Assembly (NCBI GenBank): GCA_024231025.1 | Contig: JAAEQW010000120.1 | Location: 2,324-66,323 of the forward strand | Direction: 5' to 3' | DNA length: 64,000 nt | Origin: Candidatus Omnitrophota bacterium | GTDB lineage: Bacteria > Omnitrophota > Gorgyraeia > Duberdicusellales > 4484-171 | In this document: in pieces, positions 17,503-63,964 of the stretch | Position numbering within the stretch: the stretch's first letter is position 1 | How the letters are laid out: each line of letters begins with the position of its first letter | Position numbers and translations under genes: made by a program | Notes under the pieces: model-generated | What the model saw: the letters and a program-made list of their open reading frames with translations, nothing else | The model's database searches: none | What the model was told of the DNA's origin: nothing

Positions 17503-17532
17503 CCCGACTCCCTTACTAAAAAAATCGCTCAT

Positions 17533-20481: not shown

Positions 20482-20506
20482 ATTGTCAATCACGCAAATG
20501 GAGGTA

Positions 20507-21418
20507 ATGATGCGATTAATAATGATTATTGTGGTGATTTTTACAGGTTGTTCAACCATTAACCCAAAAATGCTTGTAAACCCCTACGAACCGCTTTATT
20601 ACCGCGGGACCGACAGCTTTGATAACAAAGATTACACAACCGCTATCGAAGCATACTCTCGTTTTCTTGAAAAATGCCCTGATTCCTCTTTTACCATTCC
20701 GGCAAAACTAAATTTAGCAATGGCATATTACCATCAAGAAAAGTGGCAATTGACTCAAAGCACTTTAAAGGACGTAAAAATAACCGATTCCGCTATCAGC
20801 AAATTTGTCAACGATACATTAGCTACTTGCGAAAAAAAACTAAATCCAAATGGCAGCACAACGAGTGAAAAAACAGAAACACAACCACAAGAAGAAGTAG
20901 TAATTACGATTACTGACGCTTACTTAGATAACGCTGACATGCTTAATTTAACCGGAACCGTATCTAGAGAGGGTAAAATTTATATCGGCCAAATAGCAGC
21001 TGATTTTCAAAAAGATAATACGTTCACCATCATTTCGCGTTGGCGCAAGGGCAAGCCGATTATTATATCCTGGCGTAAAGACGGACTCGAGCAAACTCTA
21101 GATTACTATCCCGACAATGAAGAACCGCAAGCCCCTGATGGCCTTTTTCGACGCAATATGAGCGATAATACCGTTGAATTGGAATGGAACGACAATGATG
21201 AGGGCGATATTAAAGGCTACAAATTATACTATCAATTAAGCGGCAGTGGATCACTTCAGGAAGTGCGTGATATAATTGAAGATACAGACTTCGAAGTGGT
21301 TGGTTTGCAAAATTTAATTGATGGCGCAAATAAAACTTTTCGTTTTTACCTTAGAGCCGTAGATAAAATGAATAATTATTCTGATCCGTCAGACACCCTA
21401 GAGGTAACTTTGCCTTAA
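20507..21418 (+). CDS. lipoprotein with a TPR-like region and a C-terminal fibronectin type III domain (~303 aa)
   Basis: GGAGG at 20500-20504 is followed by ATGATG. The lipobox IFTGCS is present. TPR-like segments are DYTTAIEAYSRFLEKCPDS and LNLAMAYYHQEKW. An FN3-like block reads VELEWNDNDEGDIKGYKLYYQ...FRFYLRAVDKMNNYSDPS. It starts 2 nt after the OMP gene stop. Confidence 0.55.
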   Translation: MMRLIMIIVVIFTGCSTINPKMLVNPYEPLYYRGTDSFDNKDYTTAIEAYSRFLEKCPDSSFTIPAKLNLAMAYYHQEKWQLTQSTLKDVKITDSAISKFVNDTLATCEKKLNPNGSTTSEKTETQPQEEVVITITDAYLDNADMLNLTGTVSREGKIYIGQIAADFQKDNTFTIISRWRKGKPIIISWRKDGLEQTLDYYPDNEEPQAPDGLFRRNMSDNTVELEWNDNDEGDIKGYKLYYQLSGSGSLQEVRDIIEDTDFEVVGLQNLIDGANKTFRFYLRAVDKMNNYSDPSDTLEVTLP

Positions 21419-21419
21419 A

Positions 21420-24005
21420 ATGAAAAAGATTACCATCTGCATATTAATTAGCTTCCTGGTAGCCTTAATTTTAGGAGGACTGTCAATTTTTGCCCCGTAT
21501 CGCCTAATTGAGTCTAAGCTCTACGATGCACGAATGAATTTACGCCCTGCGCCTACTCAAGATAAAAGAATATTGTTTATCGAAATGGACGAACAAGCAA
21601 TAGATGACCTTGGACGCTGGCCATGGCCCCGAGACATAAATGCCCAATTAATTGAAACCTTAAAATCACTTGGAGCAAGGCAGGTTTTATTTGATGTCAC
21701 TTTTTCAAACACATCGCAGTTAGTTATCGATAAAGAAAAAATGAATGAGGTTTTTAAAGAAAAAAATATAATTTCTGACTTCATAGATCAGGTATCCGAT
21801 GGAATAAAATCAGGTGACATAAAAGAAAGAGAAGATATTTTATGGTATTTAACTCAAATCAACGATGGAATTGATGCCTTCAGAGGCAACCTTACCGACA
21901 GCATGCGCTATGCAATTACTGATAAAGATAAAATTCTCGCCTCAGCGCTTTCCAGCGATGATGTTTTTATTGGATATAAATTTGAAGTCATACACAAACC
22001 TCATGACATAGCAAAAGATGAAACCTACGCAACGCTAAAAAAGGAATTCGAAAACTGGATTATCAATAACCCAACAAAATTCTACCGAGATCTTCCTCAC
22101 CAATACAAAAGCATCTCGTCTTTTAGCGAAGAAGAAAAAAATCTTCTTTTTTTCCAACTTAAAATTCGCACCCTACTTAATGAAAATATACAAAGTAGCG
22201 TTGATCAAATAGCAAAAGCACTGAATAGACCAAAAAAAGAAGTGCGTCCCGAATTTAACAGTATAAAGAAAGATCTAGCGGAAGAAAAAATTATTTCTTT
22301 TTTAGAAGAAAATGCTCAAGCAAAATTCACTCAGGTAATATGGACCAGTCAAATCCATGATCGCCAAACAGCTCTGCTTTTTAAAAAAGCTTGGGCAAAT
22401 GTTAAGAAAAAACAACTTTTTATTGAAAAAATTGGACGCCATATAAAAACCGATCAAAAATTTCTAAAAGCAGTTAAACTCGACGTTCCCATCGCCGAAT
22501 TCACTAAAGCAGTTAACGGAGCGGGATTTCTCAATGGCATTGTCGACGATGATGGCGTACTGCGCAGCGTTCCGCTTTTCATAAAGTACGAAAACAAAAT
22601 ATACCCACATATGGCAATAACATCTGTTATAAATTTGCTTAAACCAAAAGAAATCAGTTTTGTTGGCGGAAAATTTTGCCTACTAAAAGGCATTGTCACC
22701 GAGGGCAAGCAAAAAGACCTGCGCATACCAATAGATGCAAAAGCAACTACCCTTATAAATTGGGTCGGTAAATGGCACGATACATTTAGACATGCTTCTT
22801 GCAGCGATGTTTATCGCCTTTACTCTTTACGGGAAAACGCAAAGCATAATGCCAATATCCCTAAAGAAGAATTAACCGCCGAAGCCTTAGGCGCAATCGC
22901 CAAAGAAAACGAACGCCTAGCTGAAAATGAAAAAAAGTTAACCGATAAGGTTGCTGGTTCAATTTGCATAATTGGCCTTACCGCAGCGGGAACTCATGAC
23001 TATAACCCTATACCGCAGGAATCAGCTTATCCCATGCTAGGCACTCATGCTAACATTATAAATTCGATATTAACCGAACAATTTATCACAAAAGCACCCA
23101 AAATTTATGACCTTGCCGTTACTCTCATTTTAGTAATTCTTCTGGGGGTGGTTTTAACACTGCTATCCTCTACGATTGGATTAATTTTTATAATTGCTGT
23201 AATTGCTGTAATTTTTTATTTATCGCTTTTTTTATTTAACCATGGTATCTGGATAAATTTAACATCTCCGATTTTGCTTTCTCTATTTTCGTATCTTGGA
23301 ATCACTAGCTACAAGTTCGCAACTGAAGAAAAAGAAAAACGCTGGATAAAAAAGGCATTCTCGCATTACGTTTCAAAAGAAGTAATAGAGGAAATCATAA
23401 AGGACCCGTCTAAATTAAAACTTGGTGGCCAGAGAAAGGTGCTAACCGTTCTTTTTAGTGATATAAGAAGTTTCACTACATATTCTGAAAAAAGAAAACC
23501 GGAAGAAGTTGTTACAGTGCTAAATGAATACCTCGACGAAATGACAAAAGTTATATTTGCCAATAGCGGAACGCTTGACAAGTATGTTGGTGATGAAATA
23601 ATGGCACTTTTCGGCGCACCACGCTATGAACCGCCTGATTTAAGCGCCGTGCATGCGGTAAAAACCGCCTGCGCCATGCTTGAAAAATTAGCTCTTCTGC
23701 AGGAAAAATGGAAAGCACAAGGCATAGAACCGCTTGATATCGGAATTGGCATAAACACCGGGGAGATGGTCGTTGGGAATATGGGATCAAGCTTGGTTAT
23801 GGACTACACCGTAATCGGTGATGCCGTAAATTTGGGTGCACGCATTGAAGCTTTAACCCGCCAATACAATAATCATATCATTGTTTCAGAATCTACTTAC
23901 GAGTACATAAAAGACATTGTGGATGCTAAACCGCTAGAAGCAATCAAGGTTAAAGGAAAGAACATTCCCGTTATGATATATCAAGTCAATGGAATGAAGA
24001 CTTAA
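21420..24005 (+). CDS. membrane-bound CHASE2 sensor domain / class III adenylate (or guanylate) cyclase (861 aa)
   Basis: An N-terminal TM helix is followed by a ~520-aa periplasmic-type domain (CHASE2-like length and position). A cluster of 3-4 TM helices follows (LAVTLILVILLGVV...IFIIAVIAVIFYLSLFLF...ILLSLFSYLGI). The C-terminal cyclase domain carries VLTVLFSDIRSFTTYSE, YVGDEIMALFGAP and VVGNMGS...YTVIGDAVNLGARIE, which are class III nucleotidyl cyclase signatures. Confidence 0.85.
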   Translation: MKKITICILISFLVALILGGLSIFAPYRLIESKLYDARMNLRPAPTQDKRILFIEMDEQAIDDLGRWPWPRDINAQLIETLKSLGARQVLFDVTFSNTSQLVIDKEKMNEVFKEKNIISDFIDQVSDGIKSGDIKEREDILWYLTQINDGIDAFRGNLTDSMRYAITDKDKILASALSSDDVFIGYKFEVIHKPHDIAKDETYATLKKEFENWIINNPTKFYRDLPHQYKSISSFSEEEKNLLFFQLKIRTLLNENIQSSVDQIAKALNRPKKEVRPEFNSIKKDLAEEKIISFLEENAQAKFTQVIWTSQIHDRQTALLFKKAWANVKKKQLFIEKIGRHIKTDQKFLKAVKLDVPIAEFTKAVNGAGFLNGIVDDDGVLRSVPLFIKYENKIYPHMAITSVINLLKPKEISFVGGKFCLLKGIVTEGKQKDLRIPIDAKATTLINWVGKWHDTFRHASCSDVYRLYSLRENAKHNANIPKEELTAEALGAIAKENERLAENEKKLTDKVAGSICIIGLTAAGTHDYNPIPQESAYPMLGTHANIINSILTEQFITKAPKIYDLAVTLILVILLGVVLTLLSSTIGLIFIIAVIAVIFYLSLFLFNHGIWINLTSPILLSLFSYLGITSYKFATEEKEKRWIKKAFSHYVSKEVIEEIIKDPSKLKLGGQRKVLTVLFSDIRSFTTYSEKRKPEEVVTVLNEYLDEMTKVIFANSGTLDKYVGDEIMALFGAPRYEPPDLSAVHAVKTACAMLEKLALLQEKWKAQGIEPLDIGIGINTGEMVVGNMGSSLVMDYTVIGDAVNLGARIEALTRQYNNHIIVSESTYEYIKDIVDAKPLEAIKVKGKNIPVMIYQVNGMKT

Positions 24006-25443: not shown

Positions 25444-25896
25444 TTATATAAACAAATTGTCATTTTCAATATTCATACGCCGAATACGCTTACTCATATC
25501 CTGAATAACCTTATATAAGACCTTAACCCCCAGGCGCGGATGCTCTGAAACAAGTGCGCCAAAATCATCACGGATTATTTCAAAAAGCAAACATTCCTCA
25601 ACCGCAACCGCTGAAGCCGTACGCGGCACACGATCAAAAAGAGCAATTTCACCGAAAAAATCACCAGAATAAAGAGCGATGACCTCTCTCGTTTCCGTCT
25701 TAACCTTTCGAGTTATCCTGACCGTTCCTGAATCGATCAAAAACATCCCATTACTTGTTTCATTTTCCGAAAAAATTACGTCTCCAGCACTGAAACGTTT
25801 TTCTTTACAGATTGAAGCAACATTGTCGAGCTCATCTTCGGTTAAGAATTTAAACAAGAATACGCCCTTTAATCTTTCTAATTTGTCAGTAGTCAT
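25444..25896 (-). CDS. second stand-alone cyclic-nucleotide-binding domain protein, 150 aa (paralogue of 24833-25273)
   Basis: Phosphate-binding cassette SGDFFGEIALFDRVPRTASAVA, plus IFSENETSNGMFLIDSGTVRI. Confidence 0.8.
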   Translation of the reverse strand: MTTDKLERLKGVFLFKFLTEDELDNVASICKEKRFSAGDVIFSENETSNGMFLIDSGTVRITRKVKTETREVIALYSGDFFGEIALFDRVPRTASAVAVEECLLFEIIRDDFGALVSEHPRLGVKVLYKVIQDMSKRIRRMNIENDNLFI

Positions 25897-30738: not shown

Positions 30739-31701
30739 TTACAACATAACAGTCTTCATCTCTAAATTATTAACAACACTATCGTATTCCTTATCGTCCT
30801 TTATCTTTCGGTAAGATCTACTAATTGTTTCTGTCGATACTTCCAACTCTTTTGCGATATCAACATTTTGAAAATTTAGTTTTTCTCTACAATAACGCAC
30901 GACAAAACTTCTTACCTTACAATATTCATTTTGCTTGCTGTTGTATTGTTCTAATGTCATTCCAAAACATCTCAAAAACATATTTAATACATCTACTATC
31001 AACTTGGCAGGTAAACCATCCTTTAGCTCCTGCGATGAGATCTCAGATAAATCCTTTCCGAAAATAATTTGCTTGACCCTCTCTTTAAACGTATCGCTAC
31101 CTAAAACAGACGGCCAATTCGACCCTTTTAAGCGTTTTTCAAAGTCCTCTGATGCATTTCCGTGCACACATAGATTATATTCTTTCATCGCTATTTTTTT
31201 ATACTTTCCGAAATAAGATAATGCTTCATCAACACAGAACCAATTAGGCTGTTTTTCTTTACTTCCATGGTAATACTTATGGCTACTCCACTCATATATG
31301 CCTAATTTTCGTTCTAATCCTGCTTTAATTGGGTTACAGTGAATATAGCAAATGCATTCCTTAAAATAATTATCTCCATCAATTAGAATTGACTTATACC
31401 TTCCTTTAAATAATGCACCTTCCAGTTTATGTTTTTTGTTTATTTTTTGGGTATATACACCATTGATATGACGCATAACTCTTGAAATATTTGCCTCAGG
31501 AGTACTTAAAAGCAAGTGATAATGATTTGGCATCAAGCAGTACGAATATATTTTTGCATGAAATAATTTAAAAGCTTCGGAAAGAACCGATAAGAACAAA
31601 TACCGATCACCGTCGTCGATGAAAATATTTTCACGACGGCGACCGCGATTCATTACGTGATAAATAGCATCTTTATATTCTACCCTTAACGGACGTGACA
31701 T
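30739..31701 (-). CDS. IS200-like Y1 (HUH) transposase domain fused to a DnaA C-terminal-like HTH domain (320 aa); likely a domesticated transposase-derived protein
   Basis: The N-terminal 150 aa read AIYHVMNRGRRRENIF...YCLMPNHYHLLLSTPE...YIHCNPIKAGL, which gives the HxH motif and catalytic Tyr region of the IS200/RAYT family. The C-terminal region reads ...NVDIAKELEVSTETISRSYRKIK (a DnaA_C-like helix-turn-helix). Only 19 and 30 nt separate it from neighbouring genes, and no flanking inverted repeats or REP elements were seen. Confidence 0.65.
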   Translation of the reverse strand: MSRPLRVEYKDAIYHVMNRGRRRENIFIDDGDRYLFLSVLSEAFKLFHAKIYSYCLMPNHYHLLLSTPEANISRVMRHINGVYTQKINKKHKLEGALFKGRYKSILIDGDNYFKECICYIHCNPIKAGLERKLGIYEWSSHKYYHGSKEKQPNWFCVDEALSYFGKYKKIAMKEYNLCVHGNASEDFEKRLKGSNWPSVLGSDTFKERVKQIIFGKDLSEISSQELKDGLPAKLIVDVLNMFLRCFGMTLEQYNSKQNEYCKVRSFVVRYCREKLNFQNVDIAKELEVSTETISRSYRKIKDDKEYDSVVNNLEMKTVML

Positions 31702-49808: not shown

Positions 49809-50588
49809 TTAACTTACTATTCCTTGCATCTTCTTACCCCACTCTAACAAAATAAAAATATCAGATGCCAAAACCACAAATGTGTACCCTTGATCAAATT
49901 TTTCACAAACACTTTTTTTACAAGGAGTTATATCCTGGGTTCCACACCCCTTGCCAAACTTTTTACAAGCATCAATTACCCGACCGGCTGCTTTTTTAAC
50001 CTTAGCATGCTCAATCTGCCCTGGTATCCCTAATGATCCTGATATATCATAAGGACCGATCATTACTCCATCAATAGCATCAACCGAAAGTATCTTATCA
50101 ATATTATCTACCGCGGTTATTGACTCTATCTGCACGATTAAAAACCCCGACTCATTCCAATCATTAATATACTGGTCAAAATCAAACCCATAACCTTGGG
50201 CACGAGAGATGCCAAATCCACGAATACCCTGTGGCGGATACTGCATCCACGAAGCTATCTCTCTTGCTTGGCTTGCAGTTTCAACCATTGGGACAATAAG
50301 ACCGTCGGCTCCAGAATCAAGCAGACGTTTGATCATCTCCATATTGTGCGTAGCTACTCTCGGCAAGCATAATGAGCCGCCGGATTGGCTTGCAGCAATA
50401 ATCCTCTGGGACTGCTCCTGGCTAATTGTACTATGTTCAATGTCAATTCCTATAAAATCAACACCAATCTTAGCGAACATTTCGGTAACCGATGGGTGGG
50501 CCAGAGACGTCCAAGCCGCAAACATGGTTTTACGACTTCTTAACTTGCCCTTAAGCTCGAATCTCTTCTGATTTAATTTTTTGGTCAT
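49809..50588 (-). CDS. HpcH/HpaI-family class II pyruvate aldolase (2-keto-3-deoxy-sugar-acid aldolase family), 259 aa
   Basis: GVDFIGIDIEH, GADGLIVPMVETA, YPPQGIRGFG and LIVQIES are the conserved HpcH/HpaI blocks. Confidence 0.85.
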   Translation of the reverse strand: MTKKLNQKRFELKGKLRSRKTMFAAWTSLAHPSVTEMFAKIGVDFIGIDIEHSTISQEQSQRIIAASQSGGSLCLPRVATHNMEMIKRLLDSGADGLIVPMVETASQAREIASWMQYPPQGIRGFGISRAQGYGFDFDQYINDWNESGFLIVQIESITAVDNIDKILSVDAIDGVMIGPYDISGSLGIPGQIEHAKVKKAAGRVIDACKKFGKGCGTQDITPCKKSVCEKFDQGYTFVVLASDIFILLEWGKKMQGIVS

Positions 50589-51270
50589 TGTTTACCTCTG
50601 ATTTTGCTGCATCATTTAAAAACATTTGCACCGTCTCTTTAGTATACGGATGCACAATCATCCCCTCAACTAACTTAGGTAACGCAGTTACAATATGAGC
50701 GCCAGCGTGCAACCACTCAATAATATTGAGAACTTCGCGAGTTGAGCCAATTATAATCTTTGCCTTCAGCTGAAAGTCGTCGAGAAGTTTGCGTAATTTT
50801 TTAATCTCTTCGATTGAGCTATAACCCATGTTGTTAACCCGGCCACCGAACAAAGAAACATAAGTAGCTCCTGCCATAGCTGCCACAAAGCATTGTTGCG
50901 CACTCATCATTGCTGTCACATTAACCCGAACGTTATGCATTGTCTCAAGCTCATGCACAACAGCTAAGTTATCCAACTCACCATTGGGGCCATGCACAGT
51001 AATCTTCACATTGATATTCTCGGCAAGAGAAGCAAAATACTTACCTTGAGCGATCATCTCTTTGCGATCGTTGGTTGTAACCTCAATAGAAAGCGGATAA
51101 GGATGAATAAGCTCCGCGATCTGGACTGCCACCTTTTCTACGGCGGCGATACCGCCGCGAACACCATCTTTAAGTAAAATCGTTGGATTAGTGGTAACTC
51201 CTCGAATTACCCCTAACTCATGAAACTTTTTGATGTCCTCTAACTTTCCTGTGTCTAAAAATATTGCCAT
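50551..51270 (-). CDS. transaldolase-family protein of fructose-6-phosphate aldolase / TalC type, 239 aa
   Basis: MAIFLDTGKLEDIKKFHELGVIRGVTTNPTIL matches the FSA/TalC N-terminus (LDTANV...GVTTNPSI) and the ~220-aa size class. Confidence 0.85.
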   Translation of the reverse strand: MAIFLDTGKLEDIKKFHELGVIRGVTTNPTILLKDGVRGGIAAVEKVAVQIAELIHPYPLSIEVTTNDRKEMIAQGKYFASLAENINVKITVHGPNGELDNLAVVHELETMHNVRVNVTAMMSAQQCFVAAMAGATYVSLFGGRVNNMGYSSIEEIKKLRKLLDDFQLKAKIIIGSTREVLNIIEWLHAGAHIVTALPKLVEGMIVHPYTKETVQMFLNDAAKSEVNNDQKIKSEEIRA

Positions 51271-51292
51271 AACAAACCTCCTCTAAAAATTT

Positions 51293-51898
51293 TTACTTCG
51301 CCGATAAAGTAGTCTCCCACTTATTACCCATAACCATTACTCGTGGATCAGAAACAATCATATGCCAAATAATAGCCTGAAAAGCTTCTGCCTGTGGGGT
51401 TAACATATTAGGCTGCGAAGCCGGCATCACAATACAAACATCCGCAACTTTTGGCGTATAACCGCCGGTTCTACCTACAATACCAAAAATCTTTGCCTTT
51501 TGTGATTGAGCGTACTCTAAAGCTTCAACGATATTGGTACTAATATTTTTCTCCTTATTGCCTCCGCCTACAGAAAATACCATAATGCCATCATTAGCGT
51601 TTAGCCTACTTCCCTTAAGCCATCCGCTAAAAATTGTGCTCCATCCTTCATCGTTAGCTCGAGCCGTAAGCTCAGCTACATTATCCACAGGCGAGTAAGC
51701 CTCAAAACCACCAATTTTACGAAAATCGTTTACCGCATGGGCACAGTTAGCTGCACTGCCACCTACGCCGATAAAAAATAGTCGTCCACCTTTTTTGCGT
51801 ATATCCAGCAATAAGGCAATCATCTCTTCCAATTGATCCCTGTCAACCGCGTTCAGGATATCCACGATACTTTTTAAATAATCATTTGCATACGACAT
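51293..51898 (-). CDS. SIS-domain sugar-phosphate isomerase, GmhA (sedoheptulose-7-P isomerase)-like, ~202 aa
   Basis: RLFFIGVGGSAANCAHAVNDF...GIMVFSVGGG are SIS signatures. The start ATG at 51898 has GGAGG 7 nt upstream. The track's longer ORF to 52063 would overlap the upstream gene and lacks an RBS. Confidence 0.7.
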   Translation of the reverse strand: MSYANDYLKSIVDILNAVDRDQLEEMIALLLDIRKKGGRLFFIGVGGSAANCAHAVNDFRKIGGFEAYSPVDNVAELTARANDEGWSTIFSGWLKGSRLNANDGIMVFSVGGGNKEKNISTNIVEALEYAQSQKAKIFGIVGRTGGYTPKVADVCIVMPASQPNMLTPQAEAFQAIIWHMIVSDPRVMVMGNKWETTLSAK

Positions 51899-51911
51899 AG
51901 TATAGCCTCCT

Positions 51912-52859
51912 TCAATTACTACCATTAGCCAACCGCGCCAAGCGATGTTGTGCTGGCCCATCATATAAATAATAGGCTGGTGGCATGCACTTATAGTATT
52001 TTTGTTGCCATGGGCACAATTCATCAACGATAATTTCATCATCGCTTCTCCATGGATAATCAAAAAAACGCGTCACTGTACCATCCGGCAGCATTTTTTC
52101 TACTCGATTGCAACAATATATATACGGATTAATGATCTTGGATGCGCGCAAAATACGAAAATATTGATCAATAATTTCAGGATTCATCTCCTGGAATGAA
52201 GCAATATTAGCAGCTAAACCAATAGGGCTGCCTGATAGCAATTCGCAGTTATCTGCCTGCAATGCAATAACCGAAACTTTTTTATCGCGAAGAGCTAATT
52301 GCATTTGATCTGCATTTTCGACCAAAGCCAACGATACACCTTTATTTGCCTTCAAGATACACGCTATATCTACCGCTAAAACTGGGGTTAAATTAACACA
52401 AATTATCTTAGTAATTTTGTTGCTCGGCAAGCAAGATAACAACATATTTGTCAAATTAGCGAACCCATCGCCAATTATACAAATATTGCCAGATAATTCA
52501 TTTAAACTTATCTTCTCCATCAGAAACGCCAAAGTCAAAGCCTGACGCAACTGATCAAGGTCAAAACATCTCCCCTGTTTTTTTGCAATCGCTTTACCGC
52601 TCTTGCAAATTTCTTGAATAAGATTCTTTTGTCCCCATCGATAATATGGCTTTTGCATCAAATGATGTACAAAATTAATAGAAAAATTATACTTTCTGTT
52701 ACCGCCAAAACCCTTCATTCCAGAAAAATTTCCATCATTAAAAGAAAAATCTTTCAAATAAAACTGCCAGTGAGAAGACCGCCCTTCCTCTAAATTATTC
52801 GCCAAAACTGCCAGTCGTGATATTGCTTCATCATTAAATTTTAATTGATCGGTAATCAC
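51912..52859 (-). CDS. hypothetical protein, 315 aa, possibly a Rossmann/methyltransferase-like fold
   Basis: NICIIGDGFANLTNML resembles a SAM motif I but is not diagnostic. Confidence 0.3.
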   Translation of the reverse strand: MITDQLKFNDEAISRLAVLANNLEEGRSSHWQFYLKDFSFNDGNFSGMKGFGGNRKYNFSINFVHHLMQKPYYRWGQKNLIQEICKSGKAIAKKQGRCFDLDQLRQALTLAFLMEKISLNELSGNICIIGDGFANLTNMLLSCLPSNKITKIICVNLTPVLAVDIACILKANKGVSLALVENADQMQLALRDKKVSVIALQADNCELLSGSPIGLAANIASFQEMNPEIIDQYFRILRASKIINPYIYCCNRVEKMLPDGTVTRFFDYPWRSDDEIIVDELCPWQQKYYKCMPPAYYLYDGPAQHRLARLANGSN

Positions 52860-53888: not shown

Positions 53889-54910
53889 TTATAAACCTCC
53901 TGGTATGTTTGAGAATCAATGTAGGCTTTCTCAATAATCTTCATTACCTTTAATGCATCCTGTGATGAACTAATATCAACTGTTTTATCCTGATCAATGC
54001 AATCTAAGAACTCTTTAACCTCTAAATCCCAAGAGAGATCGCGATCAAAATGAGTGATCTCTTCCTCAGGATTACCCACAGCGTAAGCTTCATCCTCAAA
54101 CTGACGTTTACCCAAGATTAACCGCTCACGGCCATAGCTACCGCTCTTTGAAAGAAGACCCTCTACCGTCGCGTATCCTTCCTCTAAAATCATTTCCAAT
54201 TTAAAAGTATGCTTCCATAAAGTAGCAGAAGAGTGTAGCGAAGCTGTCTGACCGCTTTTGTTTTTCATAATCATGTGAGCGTTGTCTTCGATAGCAAACT
54301 TCCAAAAGGAGTTACTAGTAAAACACTTAACTTGTTCAAAATCATTACAAAAATAAAGAAACAAATCTAGCATGTGAATACCCTGGTCGAGCAAAATTCC
54401 ACCCCCGGAAACACTACGATCATTACGCCAGGAGCTGGGAAAATTTTTGCCACCAGATTTACCATAAACACCTCTGAGAGATACTATATCCCCAAGTCTG
54501 CCACTATTAATAATCGCTCTAGCCTTTATGATTCCTGGATGGAAACGATGATTAAAGCCAAACATTAGCTTTATTTTTTTATTACGCTTTTCGCTTTTTA
54601 TAATATCTTCTATATCTTTTACATCGCGACCAGGCGGTTTTTCGCAAAAAATATGCTTACCGGCATTCATCCCGGCTATACACAACTCAGGCGAAGAAGA
54701 GTTAGGCGTACAAACAAAAACTATGTCTAAAACATCTTTAAAGATATCCTCAGCTTTATCATAAAGCCTGCAACCCGTAATTTTACTACGTATTTGGGAA
54801 TTAACCTCAAAAATGCCAACAAGCTCCAAGCAAGGATTAGCCTCAATAACCTTTCTTCTAATCTCTCCCATATAACCATAACCGATAATCGCTGCTTTCT
54901 TAACTTTCAT
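53885..54910 (-). CDS. Gfo/Idh/MocA-family NAD(P)-dependent sugar oxidoreductase, 341 aa
   Basis: KAAIIGYGYMG...VFVCTPNSSSPELCIAGMNAGKHIFCEKP is the N-terminal Rossmann domain with the EKP motif. Confidence 0.85.
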   Translation of the reverse strand: MKVKKAAIIGYGYMGEIRRKVIEANPCLELVGIFEVNSQIRSKITGCRLYDKAEDIFKDVLDIVFVCTPNSSSPELCIAGMNAGKHIFCEKPPGRDVKDIEDIIKSEKRNKKIKLMFGFNHRFHPGIIKARAIINSGRLGDIVSLRGVYGKSGGKNFPSSWRNDRSVSGGGILLDQGIHMLDLFLYFCNDFEQVKCFTSNSFWKFAIEDNAHMIMKNKSGQTASLHSSATLWKHTFKLEMILEEGYATVEGLLSKSGSYGRERLILGKRQFEDEAYAVGNPEEEITHFDRDLSWDLEVKEFLDCIDQDKTVDISSSQDALKVMKIIEKAYIDSQTYQEVYK

Positions 54911-55448
54911 TCAAAACCACCTCTGTTCTTTTCATCACATAATCAACCAACTTTTTAACCGATTCTGCTGCTGTTTCTTTTTCCGAATCTATTATTAGGT
55001 CCGGCATTGTCGGCGCCTCATAATCCACTCCACCAAAACCGATTAGATCGATTATTTCGCGATCTTTAGCTTTACAATACAAGCCCTTCACATCACGTTG
55101 GGTTACGCAACCTAAGCCAGCGCTAAAATAAATTTCATAAAAATTGGGTGCTAGCTTAGAGCAAGCATCGCTACGGGATACTTTAAACGGCGATATTATA
55201 GGTACCATGATGACATCATAGCTATCTTTATTTTCTTCACAAATTAAAGTAATCAAACGATTATTCTCTTTGATATCTTCCGGAGTAAAGCTCAAATGCT
55301 GGTGATACCTTTCTCGTACCTGATCGCCGTCTACGATAAATGTCATCAGACCTTTCTTTTCTAAAACTTTAGCCGCCTGCACGGCAACGGTTGTTTTGCC
55401 TGAACCGGAAAGCCCCGTAAACCAAAAAATGTTAGAGTTTTTTTTCAT
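54900..55448 (-). CDS. cysC: adenylylsulfate (APS) kinase, 182 aa
   Basis: FWFTGLSGSGKTTVA P-loop and the FIVDGDQVR segment match APS kinase. Confidence 0.9.
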   Translation of the reverse strand: MKKNSNIFWFTGLSGSGKTTVAVQAAKVLEKKGLMTFIVDGDQVRERYHQHLSFTPEDIKENNRLITLICEENKDSYDVIMVPIISPFKVSRSDACSKLAPNFYEIYFSAGLGCVTQRDVKGLYCKAKDREIIDLIGFGGVDYEAPTMPDLIIDSEKETAAESVKKLVDYVMKRTEVVLNES

Positions 55449-57622
55449 ACAAAAATTTCACGTCCTTCTTTAGTATAACCTAAAACCATATCGCTTATCT
55501 CCCCCCTGGTCATCCAAGTTGGCGGACGTACGCCTTGAACGAAACTATCTCTTACTGCTGTTCCTGAAATTGACTTTTTTTGTTCATCAATATGCGTACA
55601 TTGTGCAACATAATTATCGCAGGCTGGGCAAAATTTAATCTCATCAAACATTACAGGAATAATCCCAATATCACCTAAATCATAAAATAGCTGTTGTGAC
55701 GCGGTAGGCGGATAAAATTTACCCACTCCAGTATGGTCACGACCAATAATAAAATGGCTACAGCCAAAGTTTTTTCGGCAAAGAGCAGTGAATACTGCCT
55801 CTCTTGCCCCCGAATAACGAGAATAGGTAGCAAAAGCTCCGATAAACGCCTTATCGGGAGGTAAGAAGCCGCCGTCTAACATAACCTGATACCCCTTAAG
55901 TAAGACATCAGAAGCAAAGTCACCCTTCTTTTTCTCACCGATAACCGGACTCACCAATAAGCCATCACAGTGGGTCCTTTCTAAGGCAATTTTCTGTAAA
56001 GCTTCATGGCCGCGATGAACAACATTACGAGTATGAAACCCCACTACACGACTCCACCCCTTACTATCAAAAATATGGCGCAGCTCTTGAGGCGTAAAGT
56101 TATATATTTTATGAGCACAACGCCTTTTCCTAACCAATGTTACTTCTCCCCCTATGAAACAATCCCCTTTAGCTTTTAAACCAATCACTCCAGGATGGGT
56201 TTGGTCCAATGTGCCAAACCATCTTTTACATACCGATTCAAAAGGAAACTTATAGATATCAGTTATTTTAAGAGTAGCGTAAACCTCCTTATCAACTTTG
56301 TTTGATAAAGCAATCATCTGTCCGGCTGTTAGCCCAACAAGATCTGCACTGTGCTGCTGTAAAACTATCGGTAAGGTCCATATCGCTCCATCAACCAACT
56401 TGTAGGTGTCCAAAACTGAATCGATTTGGATTCGATCCATAAACCCCTCTAAAGGAGAATATGTCCCTACGGCTATTTGCTCGCAATCCATGATCGCCGC
56501 ATCGCTGACTTCCAACATGCGAAAACTATTAACCATTCCCCAATCAGGGTCCTTGTCCCAACGTTGCACTAGTTCTCCTCCGTGAGGCTCAACCAAAAGA
56601 GAGCCTACAGAAGTTGAACTTTGAGTCAAATCCTGCTTTTGGGAGAGATTAAATTGATTAATTAATCTGACCACCATCGAAGCTGCCTGAACAGGGCGCT
56701 TGCCAATGGCGGTTTCCGCCGCTAAAACTAATCCATCCGCACCCATCGCTAGAGAATTAATCACATCATGCACCTCAGCTCGAGTAGGAGTAGCTTTTTC
56801 AATCATTGATTCAAGAAGATTGGTCGCGATATAAACCGGTTTTCCAACCTGATTGGCACGAGAAACGATTTTTTTCTGATAAAAAGGTACCTGTTCTATT
56901 TTAATCTCTCGAGATAGATCCCCTCGATCAATTAAAATAGCATCGGTGACAGAAAGAATATCATCTAAATTCTTATACCCCCGCTGACTCTCTATCTTAG
57001 AAATAATAAAAGCCTTGCCCTGAGTGAGGCGACGCATAGTTTCAACATCTTTCTTAGTATTAGCAAAAGAAAGAGCATAATGTTTAATATCCAGCTTATT
57101 GCCGATTTCAATTGCCTCAATATCCTTTTGTGTAAAAGCTGGTAGCTCTATCTGGCGCAAAGAAGTAACTGCTTTATTACTACCTACCCAGCCACTAGAT
57201 ATCACCCTGGCCCGGATAATACCTGACTCTATAGAAATAACTCTAATTAAGGCTGAATCAAAATCAATACTCAACAAATCACCTTCGGCTAACTGATCAA
57301 TGATAAAAGCCGGATAAAGCGGTATGTTATCTAAGCTATCTGCTCGGCTATTACCCAGCACTATTTTTTGATTGGCTTTTAGAAATTTTTCTTTCACTCC
57401 AATAAAACCAGTTCTTATCTGGGCTCCTTCACTATCAAGGCATATCGAAACGCTGCTGTAACGACGGATAAAATTAACACGATCCTCTATATCATCTAAT
57501 TTAGTATGCGATAAGTTAATACGAAATAAACTTACCCCCACCTCTTCTAGACGAACTATTGTTTTTTCATTAAATGATGCTGGGCCTAATGTGCATAATA
57601 TTTTCTTTTTACTTTTGATCAT
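55445..57622 (-). CDS. in-frame fusion protein: N-terminal pyruvate-kinase barrel domain + C-terminal ATP sulfurylase (sulfate adenylyltransferase), ~725 aa
   Basis: PK part: ILCTLGPAS, RINLSH, ICLDSEGAQIRTG, IISKIESQRG, ILIDRGDLS and YIATNLLESMIEKATPTRAEVHDV...LAAETAIG cover all PK barrel blocks, including the catalytic K/E/D/T positions, with no C-terminal allosteric domain. Sat part: LEVSDAAIMDCEQIAVGTYSPLEGFM, GAIWTLPIV, GFHTRNVVHRGHE and RYSGAREAVF...HFIIGRDHTGVG. The ORF is continuous. The ATG at 57622 was preferred over the TTG at 57658. Confidence 0.85.
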   Translation of the reverse strand: MIKSKKKILCTLGPASFNEKTIVRLEEVGVSLFRINLSHTKLDDIEDRVNFIRRYSSVSICLDSEGAQIRTGFIGVKEKFLKANQKIVLGNSRADSLDNIPLYPAFIIDQLAEGDLLSIDFDSALIRVISIESGIIRARVISSGWVGSNKAVTSLRQIELPAFTQKDIEAIEIGNKLDIKHYALSFANTKKDVETMRRLTQGKAFIISKIESQRGYKNLDDILSVTDAILIDRGDLSREIKIEQVPFYQKKIVSRANQVGKPVYIATNLLESMIEKATPTRAEVHDVINSLAMGADGLVLAAETAIGKRPVQAASMVVRLINQFNLSQKQDLTQSSTSVGSLLVEPHGGELVQRWDKDPDWGMVNSFRMLEVSDAAIMDCEQIAVGTYSPLEGFMDRIQIDSVLDTYKLVDGAIWTLPIVLQQHSADLVGLTAGQMIALSNKVDKEVYATLKITDIYKFPFESVCKRWFGTLDQTHPGVIGLKAKGDCFIGGEVTLVRKRRCAHKIYNFTPQELRHIFDSKGWSRVVGFHTRNVVHRGHEALQKIALERTHCDGLLVSPVIGEKKKGDFASDVLLKGYQVMLDGGFLPPDKAFIGAFATYSRYSGAREAVFTALCRKNFGCSHFIIGRDHTGVGKFYPPTASQQLFYDLGDIGIIPVMFDEIKFCPACDNYVAQCTHIDEQKKSISGTAVRDSFVQGVRPPTWMTRGEISDMVLGYTKEGREIFV

Positions 57623-57638
57623 ATGTAGCCTGCCTTTA

Positions 57639-58838
57639 TTACAATTGTTCTTTACCAAGCACTGGTTGCAAAAATTGCTTCCCAGATATTACACGTAAAT
57701 AATACTTAAAAAATAGTTTAACCCTTAACAGATACCAAATAACATTTGTAATAATAACTTTAAATTTAGATTTTTTCAAATTGTTCCAAATGTACTGAGG
57801 AGAAAAAAATCTTAGCTCAAAACTTAATGGGAGCAAAATCAAAAACGGAACCAAAAATATATCAAAAATACCTATCTTTTTGAGAGAATAACCATAAAAA
57901 ACAAGCCGATTGTTCATAATGCAATTAAGCACGGACTTATCGTGCCAGGATAATTTTTTCTCCCAATTATTAACCAATGCTTTTGCCGACCACCCTTTAT
58001 CCTTATGTTTTGCGGTAGAAAGGGCATCCCCGTGCCACGTTAACCCAGCCCATGTCGATCTTTTTAGGCAATCATTATGAGAAATACCTAGCCATTGACA
58101 CAAACCGTTTAATACCTTGTCGTTTCCCATATCCTCTAATTTAATTGCACAATATTCGTGATTAAGCCTCTCCAAAGCTTCCACATCCGCTAAGATTCTT
58201 CTTATATAGAAATATAAGAATGCTTCGTTGTCTTTTAGCAAATCGAATTTACGCCAATGTAAAATTCCTGATACAAAATTTGCCCGAGGGTCTCTGGTTG
58301 TGCAGATAATCTTACTGGTAGGAAAATCATCCATCAGCAAATCTAAACGATCAAAACCATGTTCATGATGGAAAATAATCTTTTTGCTCTCAATATCCTG
58401 ACCTAATACAATTGCATAAGCCCCGTAAATAGCCACAAAAATAGTTTTCAAATCAAGTCTTCTGTCAACTAATAGTTGGACAAATATTTCTTTGAAGCAA
58501 GAAATATCAATATCAATGGATTTATTGCGTCCATCACCCAGCTTATTCTTTCGCTCAAATAAATCATACCTGGACTTAAACCGTTCAATAAAAAACCCGA
58601 CGAACTCATCAATAAAATCTCTAGAATCAAATTCTCCAGCCTTAACACACACCGATCTGGCCCAAAAATCATGGAATAAAAGCGACCCGTTAAAAGTAGC
58701 AACCTCTGGATGTGAATCAAGTAAACTCTGCAAGAGATCGCTGCCGGTTCTTCCGGTTGTCACTAATATATATACCGGTAAACCCAAAAGCTTTTCCATT
58801 ATTAATGCACTATCCTTTAATTTCTCATCAGTTACCAT
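57639..58838 (-). CDS. PAPS-dependent sulfotransferase with C-terminal membrane anchor, 399 aa
   Basis: The 5'-PSB-like motif YILVTTGRTGSDLLQSLL and the 3'-PB-like motif ICTTRDPRANFVSG are present. A C-terminal hydrophobic stretch reads IFDIFLVPFLILLPLSF. Confidence 0.7.
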   Translation of the reverse strand: MVTDEKLKDSALIMEKLLGLPVYILVTTGRTGSDLLQSLLDSHPEVATFNGSLLFHDFWARSVCVKAGEFDSRDFIDEFVGFFIERFKSRYDLFERKNKLGDGRNKSIDIDISCFKEIFVQLLVDRRLDLKTIFVAIYGAYAIVLGQDIESKKIIFHHEHGFDRLDLLMDDFPTSKIICTTRDPRANFVSGILHWRKFDLLKDNEAFLYFYIRRILADVEALERLNHEYCAIKLEDMGNDKVLNGLCQWLGISHNDCLKRSTWAGLTWHGDALSTAKHKDKGWSAKALVNNWEKKLSWHDKSVLNCIMNNRLVFYGYSLKKIGIFDIFLVPFLILLPLSFELRFFSPQYIWNNLKKSKFKVIITNVIWYLLRVKLFFKYYLRVISGKQFLQPVLGKEQL

Positions 58839-60678: not shown

Positions 60679-61857
60679 TTAACTCCTTATAAGATAATTA
60701 AATGCCTGGGCAACCAGATCATCGGAAACATCACCATAGACCCCGCATTCTCCTATCACCTGCGGCAAAACAAATCGTAACTGACTATTTTTTTTCTTTT
60801 TGTCTTTATAAACATTCCTCACGCATTCATCAATAAGATCTTGTCGCCGAAAATTTATTGCCTTTGAATCAACCCTTGTCGGAAGACCATATTTTTTAAG
60901 TATTGCCTCATGTTCGCGCAAAATATTATCTGACTTGCCAAAATATTTAACAGCAATATACGCCGCACCAATCATCCCAATAGAAACACCCTCTCCATGA
61001 CGATAAGTCTCAGACAAAACATCAGTTGATATCTCTACAGAATGACCCAATGTATGTCCATAATTCAACCTTAATCTTTTCCCTTGCTCTCTTACATCAC
61101 CCGATACATGGTCAAGCTTTATTTCAATGGCACGAGACATAATATACAACAACGCATCCTGTTGGCGACTTAATACTTTTTCTGAGTTAACATCAAGATA
61201 CGCAAAGAGCTCTTTATCCGCAATAACTGCACATTTTATTATTTCTGCCAAGCCTGACCTAAAATCTCGATCGGACAAAGATTTAATAAAATCAAAATCA
61301 ATCACATCAAGCATGGGATGATAATAATTGCCTATAGCATTAATTGTTTTTCTGAAATTTATAGCTACCTTTCCTCCAATAGAGCTGTCAATCATCGCCA
61401 TTAGAGTAGTCGGAATGCTAATAAAATTAACTCCCCTCAGGTAAGTGCTTGCTACAAAACCAACCAAATCACCAATAACTCCGCCACCAAAAGCAATAAT
61501 TGTAGAATCACGCGAAAAGCCCTTTATTTCAAGAAACTCATAAAGGCCAATTGCACTAATGATAGTTTTGTTATGCTTACCCGACTTTAAAAGGTGGGTA
61601 TGCACTTGATATTGAGCACAAGTTAAGGCATCTTGAACCTTACCTTTAACTAAATCTTCAAAATAAGGATCAAAAACAATAAGAACTTTTTTATTCTTTG
61701 TTTTCGAGTTTAGATTCTCTATGAGGCTATCCGGTAACAGATCTCGACCCAGAAGTATATTATAGCAAGAACTGTCCAATTTAACTTCATAATTATTATA
61801 CATCACATTGCTCTTCATTATCTTTCTCCTATACCGCAAAAAGTCCGGTATCAACAA
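60679..61857 (-). CDS. 3-dehydroquinate-synthase-like (DHQS family) sugar-phosphate cyclase/oxidoreductase, 392 aa
   Basis: GGGVIGDLVGFVASTYLRGVNFISIPTTLMAMIDSSIGGKVAINF and LNYGHTLGHSVE match the AroB/sedoheptulose-7-P cyclase metal and NAD binding blocks. The true substrate cannot be decided by eye. Confidence 0.75.
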   Translation of the reverse strand: MLIPDFLRYRRKIMKSNVMYNNYEVKLDSSCYNILLGRDLLPDSLIENLNSKTKNKKVLIVFDPYFEDLVKGKVQDALTCAQYQVHTHLLKSGKHNKTIISAIGLYEFLEIKGFSRDSTIIAFGGGVIGDLVGFVASTYLRGVNFISIPTTLMAMIDSSIGGKVAINFRKTINAIGNYYHPMLDVIDFDFIKSLSDRDFRSGLAEIIKCAVIADKELFAYLDVNSEKVLSRQQDALLYIMSRAIEIKLDHVSGDVREQGKRLRLNYGHTLGHSVEISTDVLSETYRHGEGVSIGMIGAAYIAVKYFGKSDNILREHEAILKKYGLPTRVDSKAINFRRQDLIDECVRNVYKDKKKKNSQLRFVLPQVIGECGVYGDVSDDLVAQAFNYLIRS

Positions 61858-62491
61858 TTAGCTCCGCAATCTTAAAATCTTCAGGGGTATCGATGTCATG
61901 CCCCTCAAAATGGTTAATATTCTTAACGTAAGGTCGAGTTGAAATTCTTTGCCCTGTCTTCTCGAAAACCTCTCTCTTAAACACATACAAACTTGACTGT
62001 TCCGCGACCACCGGATCTATATCCTGAGTGCGCGGGGTTGGCTTATCAAGAGAATAATTCAAAGGCTTACCGTTAAACCAGCAAAACTTGTTTATTGCAT
62101 AAGCGGTAAAGCTTGAGTCGTATTCATCAGAATTAACTCTGCCCAAACAATCAACAATAGTTTCAGGCTTCAAAAAGGGTGATGTAATATGTAAAAGAAC
62201 TACTGTGTCCGCGCTATCCAATTTTAAAAATTCTCTTATCAGGTCTTGAATCGTTGTATTTTGATCATCAAGGGTATCCGGCCGCTTTAAAAATTTATAT
62301 TTTAGCCCAGGCTGAATATGTTCACAAATAGATGGCTCGGAAGCAAAAATTACAACCTCATCAATATCCGAAACTTTGTTTAAAGCACGCACTGTATAGT
62401 TCACCAAAGGCACTCCTCCCAACTCTTTTATATTCTTAGAAGGCAAACGCTGACTGTTAAGCCTCGACGGTATAAACCCCACTGTTCTCAT
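61829..62491 (-). CDS. acylneuraminate/ulosonic-acid cytidylyltransferase (NeuA/PseF-like CTP_transf_3), 220 aa
   Basis: VGFIPSRLNSQRLPSKNI matches the I-P-A-R-x-x-S-x-R-x-P-x-K-N motif of CMP-NeuAc/CMP-Kdo synthetases. Confidence 0.7.
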   Translation of the reverse strand: MRTVGFIPSRLNSQRLPSKNIKELGGVPLVNYTVRALNKVSDIDEVVIFASEPSICEHIQPGLKYKFLKRPDTLDDQNTTIQDLIREFLKLDSADTVVLLHITSPFLKPETIVDCLGRVNSDEYDSSFTAYAINKFCWFNGKPLNYSLDKPTPRTQDIDPVVAEQSSLYVFKREVFEKTGQRISTRPYVKNINHFEGHDIDTPEDFKIAELIVDTGLFAV

Positions 62492-62503: not shown

Positions 62504-63964
62504 CTATTGCAAAGATTTTCTGATAAAATTATAAAAATTACTACTGTTGTCTTCCTCATATCTAAATCGACTAACATCGATATCTTTTTTCTTGATGCCT
62601 TTGAGCCTGCTTAACATAAAATTTATAGCGTCATAAGACTTATCCTTGCTATTCACATAACAAACAGGAAAGATATCGGGTGATTGATAATTATTAAACA
62701 CTCCAGTCTTAAAATGATTGTACCTATCCCATTTATCATAGAGCAATACCGGTATTCTATTTATCAATGCCTCATCGATAACCGTAGATGAATAGCTTAT
62801 TAACATATCTGAAGCTGAAAGAACATCCTCAAATTTTCCTAATCTGCTTATACTGTACTTACTTGACTCTGGTAAAAATAATTTCATCTCCTCGTCACTT
62901 AAATCAAAGCCGGGATGCACTCTTATGATTAATTTGGTGTTATCCATTTTGTTTATCGCACCAACCACATCAGCTAGCCCCGATAAATATTCATCCACTG
63001 TCTCTAGAAAATAAAATCTTTCAGACCCTATGGGCTTAACTGTCGTAGCGTGGAGAATCACTTGTTCATCCGGCAAAAAACTTAAGTGAGCCTTCTTTGT
63101 AAACTTATCTGTTTCAGTTATATCAGCAAAAATGAGTGGGGCCGTTAACACCTCTTTATTTTTTATCCATTCATACTTGTTCTTGAAATATCGAAAATGC
63201 TCTTGCTGCACAGGAGTGCTCAGAGCTACATGACTATAATCTCCAAGCATAAAACCTCTACACAGATTAAAAATCGATATCTCATGATACTGATTAATTG
63301 GCATAGGATGAGTGCCATGAGAGATAAATAAAGATGGCCTGTCAAGTTTAGGCAGCAACTCAGCGGCAACATACCACAATCCTCTACCAAATGGCGATAT
63401 CAACAGAACAATATTAAATTTCTGAGTCAAAGCTTTAAACTTATAGGACCACTCTACCATCTGACGAAGACGCCCCACAAAAACACTCCTCTTTTGGTCC
63501 ATAACTTGTTTAACGTTAACTCCATTATAGGTAAAGACACTTTCGCATTCGTCATCAAATAATTTTTCTAGACTTTTGGTAACGCCGGCTTGGTCTATTG
63601 AGCTATCCCGACTTTGCACAAAGTTAATATCTATAAAAAAGACACCTGAAAATAATCCCCATATTAACCCACCATATCTCTGATACCACTTCAATCGCTT
63701 ATCATCTTTAAGAATTAAGAAGCTACTATGTGAGTTTTTAAATTTAACCTTATCTACCAATACTTTGAATCCATAGCTTAACGTAGGTAGCACAACCAGA
63801 ACCTTATTGAAAACTTTTAAGTACGCCTTTAATAAATCCAAAGAAAAATTATACATCGCCGACGCGTTCTCTTGCGTTCCGGTAAATCCTTTTTTCGCGC
63901 ACTCTTGGGAGTCCCCAAAATAATGAAATTTGATCTTATGCTTATCCGCGAACTTCTTTACCAA
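62504..63964 (-). CDS. GT-B-fold TagF/KpsC-like transferase (paralogue of 44481-45917), 486 aa; the upstream region runs to the window edge
   Basis: IIRVHP...DMLISYSSTVIDEALINRIPVLLYD resembles the TagF HP and ITDYSS motifs. Confidence 0.35.
   Translation of the reverse strand: MVKKFADKHKIKFHYFGDSQECAKKGFTGTQENASAMYNFSLDLLKAYLKVFNKVLVVLPTLSYGFKVLVDKVKFKNSHSSFLILKDDKRLKWYQRYGGLIWGLFSGVFFIDINFVQSRDSSIDQAGVTKSLEKLFDDECESVFTYNGVNVKQVMDQKRSVFVGRLRQMVEWSYKFKALTQKFNIVLLISPFGRGLWYVAAELLPKLDRPSLFISHGTHPMPINQYHEISIFNLCRGFMLGDYSHVALSTPVQQEHFRYFKNKYEWIKNKEVLTAPLIFADITETDKFTKKAHLSFLPDEQVILHATTVKPIGSERFYFLETVDEYLSGLADVVGAINKMDNTKLIIRVHPGFDLSDEEMKLFLPESSKYSISRLGKFEDVLSASDMLISYSSTVIDEALINRIPVLLYDKWDRYNHFKTGVFNNYQSPDIFPVCYVNSKDKSYDAINFMLSRLKGIKKKDIDVSRFRYEEDNSSNFYNFIRKSLQ

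Follow-up and report, generated by a model that had tools for sequence, protein, structure and literature searches.

The formation of adenosine 5'-phosphosulfate (APS) by ATP sulfurylase (ATPS) is strongly unfavorable and has to be pulled by removal of pyrophosphate (PPi) and APS. APS kinase (APSK), which converts APS to 3'-phosphoadenosine 5'-phosphosulfate (PAPS), can be trapped in a dead-end enzyme-ADP-APS complex and is thereby inhibited. The closest described systems are the PAPS synthases, in which a Sat-type sulfurylase is fused to APS kinase, and the CysDN/NodPQ sulfurylases, of which NodPQ travels with the sulfotransferase NodH to sulfate a glycan. In engineered enzyme cascades pyruvate kinase (PK) and phosphoenolpyruvate (PEP) are added to these activities, and when both were left out PAPS was "practically missing" and ADP accumulated (PMC9885120). 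Here we describe a 725-amino acid protein that joins a PK barrel to an ATPS, encoded within a 64,000-nucleotide stretch of DNA, referred to below as the window, from a Candidatus Omnitrophota bacterium (assembly GCA_024231025.1, contig JAAEQW010000120.1, positions 2,324 to 66,323). The protein can be considered, with a probability of about 0.6, an ATP-recycling PK-sulfurylase fusion within the PAPS-supply and sulfation cassette of a glycan locus, a role read from its sequence, relatives and gene context.

Structure of the fusion and of the sulfation module

The open reading frame (ORF) listing and Pfam matches to both halves bore out the initial annotation of this region, which had described a PK barrel fused in frame to an ATPS. 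The gene spans nucleotides 55445 to 57622 and, like the rest of the module, lies on the minus strand. The encoded protein consists of a PK A/B barrel (amino acids 5-313, nucleotides 56684-57610; PF00224, 1.4e-65, profile positions 3-327 of 328), an interdomain linker that is variable in the family alignment and of low confidence in the AlphaFold2 (AF2) model (amino acids 314-344, nucleotides 56591-56683), the PUA-like N-terminal domain of ATPS, PUA_2 (amino acids 345-498, nucleotides 56129-56590; PF14306, 1.4e-35), and the ATPS catalytic domain (amino acids 507-714, nucleotides 55481-56104; PF01747, 5e-68). The absence of the C-terminal allosteric domain of PK was also borne out, as the Pfam scan of the fusion gave no match to PK_C (PF02887).

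The first gene of the module (57639-58838) encodes a 399-amino acid sulfotransferase that matches PF13469 (3e-9, 37.9 bits versus a gathering score of 27) and PF00685 (8.5e-6, 25.8 bits versus 22). The fusion gene is followed by cysC (54900-55448), coding for a 182-amino acid APS kinase with the P-loop GLSGSGKTT (PF01583, 1.1e-35; TIGR00455, 144.8 bits, above the cutoff of 138.7); APS kinase is therefore a separate ORF in the window and is not carried on the sulfurylase chain as in bifunctional PAPS synthases. The three genes are contiguous as had been annotated, and the stop codon of the fusion and the start codon of cysC share the sequence ATGA (gtATGAaa), but the overlap that had been extended to the sulfotransferase did not hold: 16 nt separate the sulfotransferase stop from the ATG of the fusion, so that these two genes abut without overlapping. 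At its other end cysC shares 11 nt with the gene that follows. An alternative upstream TTG at 57658 would lead to a 737-amino acid fusion; the ATG is preferred because the N-termini of the homologues and the NCBI record agree with it. The G+C content is uniform over the region (0.36-0.40), and the reading frame of the fusion is continuous, with no break in composition.

Extent of the fusion family

Three comparisons were used to establish how far this architecture extends. The best 120 database matches to the fusion (47-62% identity, 98-100% coverage) were taken as the homologue set; a scan in which each GTDB species was represented by a single genome yielded 535 tblastn-confirmed stretches, from which 80 loci were retained; and the junction, represented by amino acids 200-500 of the fusion, was used as query against 1.84 billion representatives of 50% identity clusters. 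At least 120 full-length homologues have the PF00224, PF14306 and PF01747 architecture in common, and all 80 retained loci, from 15 or more phylum-level lineages, encode the full-length fusion. The junction query identified 192 clusters at E<=1e-30, and roughly 130 of the top 150 cross the junction, which puts the number of junction-spanning clusters at about 130-190. An identical protein exists in NCBI (P0001, from a Candidatus Omnitrophica metagenome-assembled genome (MAG), on a 132,610-bp contig), where it is named only "sulfate adenylyltransferase". Members of the family as a whole go by this name in NCBI or by "pyruvate kinase" in JGI (database annotations; PMC10839748).

The lineages that encode the fusion include Omnitrophota, "Deltaproteobacteria", Planctomycetota, Chloroflexota, Nitrospinota, Verrucomicrobiota, Elusimicrobiota, Saccharibacteria, Parcubacteria, Acidobacteriota, Calditrichota, Actinomycetota, Gemmatimonadota, Bdellovibrionota, and Alpha-, Beta- and Gammaproteobacteria. 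Cultured hosts are Methyloversatilis universalis FAM5 and EHg5 and Mesorhizobium album, and two extra copies, on records that lack informative annotation, come from Sinorhizobium chiapasense and Ensifer adhaerens, where they reside on chromid-sized replicons. The identity to the fusion of the window is about 46-51% regardless of the phylum, which indicates lateral spread. Judging from these comparisons, the fusion family is large and has spread laterally, with members in hundreds of bacterial genomes. The concern that the junction (at about 56600) might be an artefact was settled by the same comparison: more than 120 independently assembled homologues share it, including those from finished MAG chromosomes, isolate genomes and rhizobial chromids, which rules out an assembly chimera or a frameshift.

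Conservation of the two halves

The PK barrel aligns to residues 3-332 of E. coli PykF with an identity of about 31%, and the AF2 model of the fusion matches PykF structurally with a TMt of about 0.61 over 333 columns (Foldseek). Counterparts of PykF Arg32, Asn34, Ser36, Asp66, Arg73, Lys156, Lys220, Glu222, Asp246, Thr278 and Glu314 are all present; the seven of them that take part in catalysis or phosphate binding, K220, E222, D246, T278, R32, R73 and K156, align to K209, E211, D235, T267, R34, R70 and K150 of the fusion. Residues R34, N36, D63, R70, K209, E211, D235 and E303 are invariant in the 120 fusions, S38 and T267 are kept in 119, and K150 is found in 117, with Arg in the remaining three. 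Loss of the catalytic Lys, Glu, Asp or Thr, against which the initial annotation had cautioned, is thus not seen in the fusion of the window. The earlier statement that all catalytic blocks are present stands for the catalytic residues and fails for the cation loop, which reads DSEGAQIR and is considered below together with other departures. The mean pairwise identity is 59.8% in the PK A-domain (28 invariant columns) versus 60.6% in the ATPS catalytic domain (30 invariant columns), and 30% in the linker, which has no invariant column. The conserved catalytic residues, together with an A-domain as constrained as the sulfurylase, rule out that the PK half is a decayed domain; by residue conservation it is catalytically intact and looks functional.

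The best match of the sulfurylase half in the PDB is the ATPS of M. thermolithotrophicus (8a8d; E 1.9e-80 over residues 342-715), which also matches the AF2 model with a TMt of 0.89. The motifs that define ATPS are HxxH, GRD, GxxKxxD and QXRN (PMC3779200). In the fusion the HxxH motif is kept as H536-R-G-H539 and the GRD loop as G627-R-D-H630, within the sequence GRDHTG. Residues H530, R532, N533, H536 and H539, residues K564, K565 and D568 of the GxxKxxD loop, and the Cys3His zinc motif (C665, C668, C675, H677) are invariant in the family alignment. The sulfurylase half looks functional as well.

The NCBIfam collection has no dedicated model for the fusion; just generic PK and Sat models were matched, all below their cutoffs. 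The PK equivalog TIGR01064 scored 259.4 bits versus a cutoff of 306.4, while TIGR00339 (309.1 versus 322.95) and NF003166 (367.6 versus 387) were narrowly below. The AF2 model has a mean pLDDT of 83.6 and a pTM of 0.71, with both halves confident and pLDDT values below 50 at residues 336-340 and 344-347, in the linker. No solved chain spanning over half of the model was found by structure search (TMq <=0.48), and the PDB sequence search gave the same result.

Gene neighborhoods and variant arrangements

The neighbors of the fusion were counted within 6 kb in the 54 loci whose flanks extend 3 kb or more on each side (well-flanked loci). Both cysC and a sulfotransferase gene were present in 17 of these loci, cysC only in 11, a sulfotransferase gene only in 18, and neither in 8; that is, one or both accompany the fusion in 46 loci (85%). 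The sulfotransferase gene is within 6 kb in 35 loci and within 1.2 kb in 29. The fusion followed by cysC is the commonest arrangement among the related loci: in 28 of 84, cysC is the next gene downstream in the same orientation, and to these come five more where the ORF call overlaps the fusion. A universal linkage to cysC fails: 26 of the 54 loci have no cysC within 6 kb, and in a Brocadiaceae locus (L004) a different gene is found downstream. Other recurrent neighbors are genes for epimerases/dehydratases, DegT aminotransferases, NeuB, cytidylyltransferases, glycosyltransferases, ABC exporters, sulfatase-family proteins and TauE/SafE permeases. As far as gene content indicates, the family thus belongs to mobile cassettes for glycan sulfation and not to sulfur assimilation.

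A family of about 650-740 amino acids with no credible Pfam match recurs beside the PK/ATPS/APSK module (L002, 10714-12861; L087, 4028-6004; L011, 8169-10385; and L004, L005, L009 and L010). In L011 the protein is fused to the C-terminus of APS kinase. This family could be a PAPS-using enzyme, for instance a new class of sulfotransferase.

The same parts also occur in other combinations. In three proteins of 904-930 amino acids (P0147, P0176 and P0182) the PK barrel, PUA_2, ATPS and APS kinase form a triple fusion. Stand-alone barrels of 332-338 amino acids with the full family signature were also found (P0246, P0251 and P0264). In two loci (L087 and L089) the gene for a stand-alone signature barrel is followed directly by that for APS kinase, without an intervening sulfurylase. 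Another locus (L088) has an operon with a stand-alone barrel and a PUA_2-ATPS-APSK fusion, in which the gene directly after the barrel encodes a sulfotransferase that is a full-length homologue of that in the window (38.5% identity). In L091 a sulfotransferase gene is about 4 kb away from the stand-alone barrel, the L090 locus is too short to judge, and one further stand-alone barrel (P0252) sits on a 2-kb contig. The triple fusions and the stand-alone barrels beside APS kinase therefore indicate that the barrel works within PAPS synthesis, and the pairs of PK and APS kinase point specifically to the ADP-producing step.

Two proteins with a PK domain in other company were noted. P0233 (1151 amino acids) has an N-terminal NPP-type phosphodiesterase/nucleotide pyrophosphatase followed by PK, PUA_2 and ATPS, and P0239 (1051 amino acids) is an unrelated tandem PK and adenylate kinase protein.

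Proposed role in PAPS supply

In the role that we favor, the sulfurylase half would convert ATP and sulfate to APS and PPi, the translationally coupled CysC would convert APS to PAPS with production of ADP, and the PK half would use PEP to return this ADP to ATP. Overall, ATP + PEP + sulfate would yield PAPS + PPi + pyruvate. By removing ADP, the PK half would keep APS kinase out of the dead-end E-ADP-APS complex, and the freed kinase would efficiently drain APS, by which the uphill sulfurylase step is tightly product-inhibited. Without its C-domain, the PK barrel would no longer respond to glycolytic allosteric control, and the sulfurylase may supply the oligomerization that this domain normally provides.

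The initial annotation had proposed that PK recycles the ADP made by APS kinase. This role has comparative support in the triple fusions, in the barrels located upstream of APS kinase and in the analogy with the in vitro cascades (PMC9885120), and at the level of function it is a prediction. A direct pull on the uphill sulfurylase step is not to be ascribed to PK, as this pull comes from removal of PPi and APS; the effect of PK would be on the kinase step and the ratio of ATP to ADP. The proposed self-contained PAPS factory agrees with the contiguous cysC and sulfotransferase genes of the window and is not a universal property of the family, as the loci lacking cysC demonstrate. A more ambitious version, in which PK, sulfurylase and APS kinase would form a physical machine with local hand-over of nucleotides, PEP cleavage would drive sulfate activation, and His530 and the changes in the cation loop would be adaptations to it, we regard as improbable. 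If true, this PEP-driven machine would represent a third answer to the uphill APS problem beside the CysN GTPase and the pull by pyrophosphatase, and the triple-fusion relatives would be natural single-chain, self-recharging PAPS synthases.

Evidence against ADP recycling and alternative explanations

Several observations weigh against a simple ADP-recycling role. Whereas the cation loop of canonical PK reads DTKGPEIR (Thr113, Lys114 and Glu117 in rabbit numbering), that of the family reads D[T/S]EGAQIR, with E65 in 118 and Q68 in 120 of the 120 fusions; we take it to match neither of the two types of PK, the K+-dependent one with Glu117 and the K+-independent one with Lys117. Further departures are S237-R238, N268 and A301, and the corresponding family motifs are RGDLSRE for RGDLGVE, ATNLL for ATQML and LAAE for LSGE. 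In the sulfurylase half the QXRN (RNP) loop reads HTRN, with His530 in 120 of 120 fusions, while the solved ATPS that were aligned to the fusion all carry Gln at this position. The Ala of GRDHAG (position 631) is Thr in 102 fusions, Ser in 12 and Ala in only 6. As a consequence both non-Arg ligand positions of the APS sulfate are altered family-wide, in loops that are strictly conserved in ordinary ATPS (PMC3779200). The Gln-to-His change was considered as a mark of covalent fusion only, and this was rejected because Asn occupies this position in the split ATPS-APSK partner of L088. These invariant substitutions in both halves could signal altered substrates or regulation. The ADP source, moreover, is not always encoded next door, as follows from the 26 well-flanked loci without cysC. 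These include Methyloversatilis (L043, L068 and L074), in which the fusion overlaps a downstream sulfotransferase gene, no cysC is present within 6 kb, and the sulfurylase motifs deviate further (HGRN and GRNH, without the Cys3His zinc motif); in this variant the donor may be either APS or PAPS. Domain scans found no pyrophosphatase in the window, and PK does not remove PPi. Finally, a housekeeping PK could do the same job, and stoichiometry alone fails to explain the advantage of a fused one.

The substitutions listed above would agree with a PK half that is active in a non-canonical manner, either with another nucleotide or acceptor, such as a compound related to APS or PAP, or through PEP use coupled to the sulfurylase as CysN is to CysD. 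The altered positions near the active site (E65, Q68, S237-R238, N268 and A301) are invariant or nearly so, the sulfate ligands are changed as well, and the barrel is joined to the sulfurylase and not to an ADP-producing kinase, which in many loci is not even adjacent. On the other hand, the residues for ordinary phosphoryl transfer from PEP to ADP are all kept, the partner of the stand-alone signature barrels is APS kinase and not the sulfurylase, and the variable, low-confidence linker argues against a rigid mechanical interface. We know of no precedent for a non-canonical coupling of PK to a sulfurylase, and consider this explanation possible though rather unlikely. A barrel with a mainly regulatory or structural function, as a sensor of PEP or ADP or as an oligomerization scaffold replacing accessory domains of ATPS, seems to us distinctly unlikely. 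Such a function would agree with the missing C-domain, which mediates tetramerization of PK, with the PK equivalog score below the cutoff, and with the inactive or regulatory kinase-like domains that are fused to fungal and yeast ATPS (PMC3779200), among them the catalytically silent APS-kinase-like domain of the fungal enzyme, an allosteric binder of PAPS. Domains that do not catalyze usually lose their catalytic residues, however, while here Lys209, Glu211, Asp235, Arg34, Arg70 and Glu303 are invariant in the 120 fusions, the A-domain is as conserved as the catalytic domain of the sulfurylase, and signature barrels persist as genes of their own beside APS kinase.

The module could also serve the general supply of APS and PAPS for sulfur assimilation or dissimilation, its position in a glycan locus being incidental. 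The plain database name "sulfate adenylyltransferase" and the fact that the closest solved relative, 8a8d, is the assimilatory ATPS of a methanogen favor this view, but among the window genes domain scans found no sulfite, APS or PAPS reductase, AprAB, CysDN or second PK, and across the family the recurrent neighbors are the sulfotransferase, sugar-nucleotide, NeuB, cytidylyltransferase, glycosyltransferase and exporter genes described above. We hold a role in general sulfur metabolism to be very unlikely. An assembly chimera, or a read-through of adjacent genes due to a sequencing error, might be suspected because the window derives from a MAG, but with a continuous frame and a junction found in so many independent assemblies, isolates and chromids its probability is practically negligible. 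Recycling of the ADP formed by APS kinase thus continues to be the explanation that we prefer.

The surface-glycan locus around the module

Pfam and further profile scans placed the module within a co-directional Wzy-type surface-glycan locus of about 40 kb (24153-63964, minus strand), which confirmed the glycan context that had been proposed for it. The locus encodes an initiating GT4-family transferase, a PglF/WbpM-like dehydratase, a Wzy_C protein, GT1 and GT2 transferases, enzymes acting on NDP-sugars, short-chain dehydrogenases/reductases (SDRs), methyltransferases and two B12-radical-SAM enzymes. It also includes two CMP-sugar-type cytidylyltransferases (CTP_transf_3), a DHQ-synthase-like enzyme, a transaldolase, an HpcH/HpaI aldolase, and SIS and HAD proteins. 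The latter group, in which the DHQ-synthase-like enzyme is a sugar-phosphate cyclase and the transaldolase is of the transaldolase/FSA type, flanks the module at 49809-52063 and 60679-62491 on the minus strand, and this set of enzymes points to an unusual sugar of the ulosonic-acid or cyclitol type. Pyruvate, the product of PK, is used by aldolases of the HpcH type; the HpcH/HpaI aldolase is not a recurrent neighbor of the fusion in other loci.

At one end of the locus (62504-63964, minus strand) a 486-amino acid ORF with no Pfam family shows 34.5% identity over 313 amino acids to a 657-amino acid protein. In three Omnitrophota loci (L002, L003 and L009) the latter is encoded two genes past cysC, and it weakly resembles UDP-GlcNAc 2-epimerase and GT-B folds. 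A 320-amino acid ORF with an IS200-like Y1 transposase domain (30739-31701, minus strand) lies co-directionally in the middle of the glycan array. At the other end of the locus are a CHASE2-sensor adenylate/guanylate cyclase (21420-24005, plus strand), adjoined by TPR proteins at 18130-21418, and a small cyclic-nucleotide-binding protein (25444-25896, minus strand); the cyclase and the binding protein may constitute a regulatory link through a cyclic nucleotide. Just downstream of the glycan locus, a 5,291-amino acid ORF (1672-17547, minus strand) with matches to FecR, Big_6 bacterial Ig, Glucodextran_B and fibronectin-III domains probably encodes a huge surface protein.

Significance and comparison with known systems

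A full-text search of the literature, to which subscription journals are mostly external so that absence is not proof, produced no description of a PK-sulfurylase fusion; co-mentions of PK and sulfurylase were PK/LDH coupling assays or pathway lists. The earlier view that the architecture is undescribed agrees with this result, but its distribution over hundreds of genomes means that it is not rare, and the family is real, widespread and apparently uncharacterized. If ADP recycling is true, the fusion would be an undescribed and widespread bacterial form of PAPS synthase with a built-in ATP-regenerating enzyme, and it suggests how the Sat-type sulfurylases of mobile glycan-sulfation cassettes may work efficiently without CysN. 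PAPS supply and inhibition by ADP are bottlenecks in the enzymatic sulfation of heparin, chondroitin and drugs, for which a natural PK-ATPS(-APSK) chain could be a ready-made part. The distribution of the family would also mark glycan sulfation as common in poorly known phyla such as Omnitrophota, CPR, Planctomycetota, Nitrospinota and Chloroflexota, and its presence in tractable isolates of Methyloversatilis, Mesorhizobium and Ensifer makes the idea directly testable. There is in addition an annotation hazard, since automated reconstructions of MAGs, for example of Nitrospinota and Omnitrophota, may wrongly credit them with a glycolytic PK or an assimilatory or dissimilatory Sat.

Each half of the fusion has well-described stand-alone relatives. 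With canonical PK (E. coli PykF, 1pky and 4yng; rabbit muscle, 1a49) it shares the A/B barrel and the catalytic and phosphate-binding residues, and it differs from them in the missing C-domain, the cation loop, and the changes Ser to Ala301 and Gln to Asn268. Its PUA_2 and catalytic domains and its HxxH, GRD, GxxKxxD and Cys3His zinc motifs are shared with stand-alone Sat ATPS (8a8d; Thermus thermophilus, 1v47; A. vinosum, 4dnx), unlike which every fusion has His for the Gln of QXRN, mostly Thr for the Ala of GRDHAG, and the PK barrel at the N-terminus.

CysDN/NodPQ likewise spends an extra high-energy phosphate against the unfavorable APS equilibrium, but the fold of CysD is unrelated to Sat, and Pfam and NCBIfam found no CysD or CysN domain in the proteins of the module. 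GTP hydrolysis in that system is, besides, mechanistically coupled, whereas PK would act indirectly through ADP and ATP. The engineered cascades combine the same activities, namely sulfurylase, APS kinase, PK with PEP, and sulfotransferase, on the same rationale of ADP removal (PMC9885120); there the enzymes are separate, mixed and supplemented with pyrophosphatase, while the fusion is covalent and has no pyrophosphatase in its vicinity in the window. The nearest natural counterparts are the ATPS-APSK PAPS synthases (animal PAPSS1/2, the Aquifex aeolicus Sat-CysC 2gks, and the fungal 1i2d with its regulatory APS-kinase-like domain), in which a Sat-type sulfurylase is likewise fused to a pathway partner. 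The sulfurylase half can be aligned with both 2gks and 1i2d, and the same ATPS-APSK core is found inside the triple-fusion relatives. The PAPS synthases described so far have no PK domain, whereas the fusion reported here carries a putative ATP-regenerating partner at its N-terminus and usually leaves APS kinase to a separate, coupled gene.

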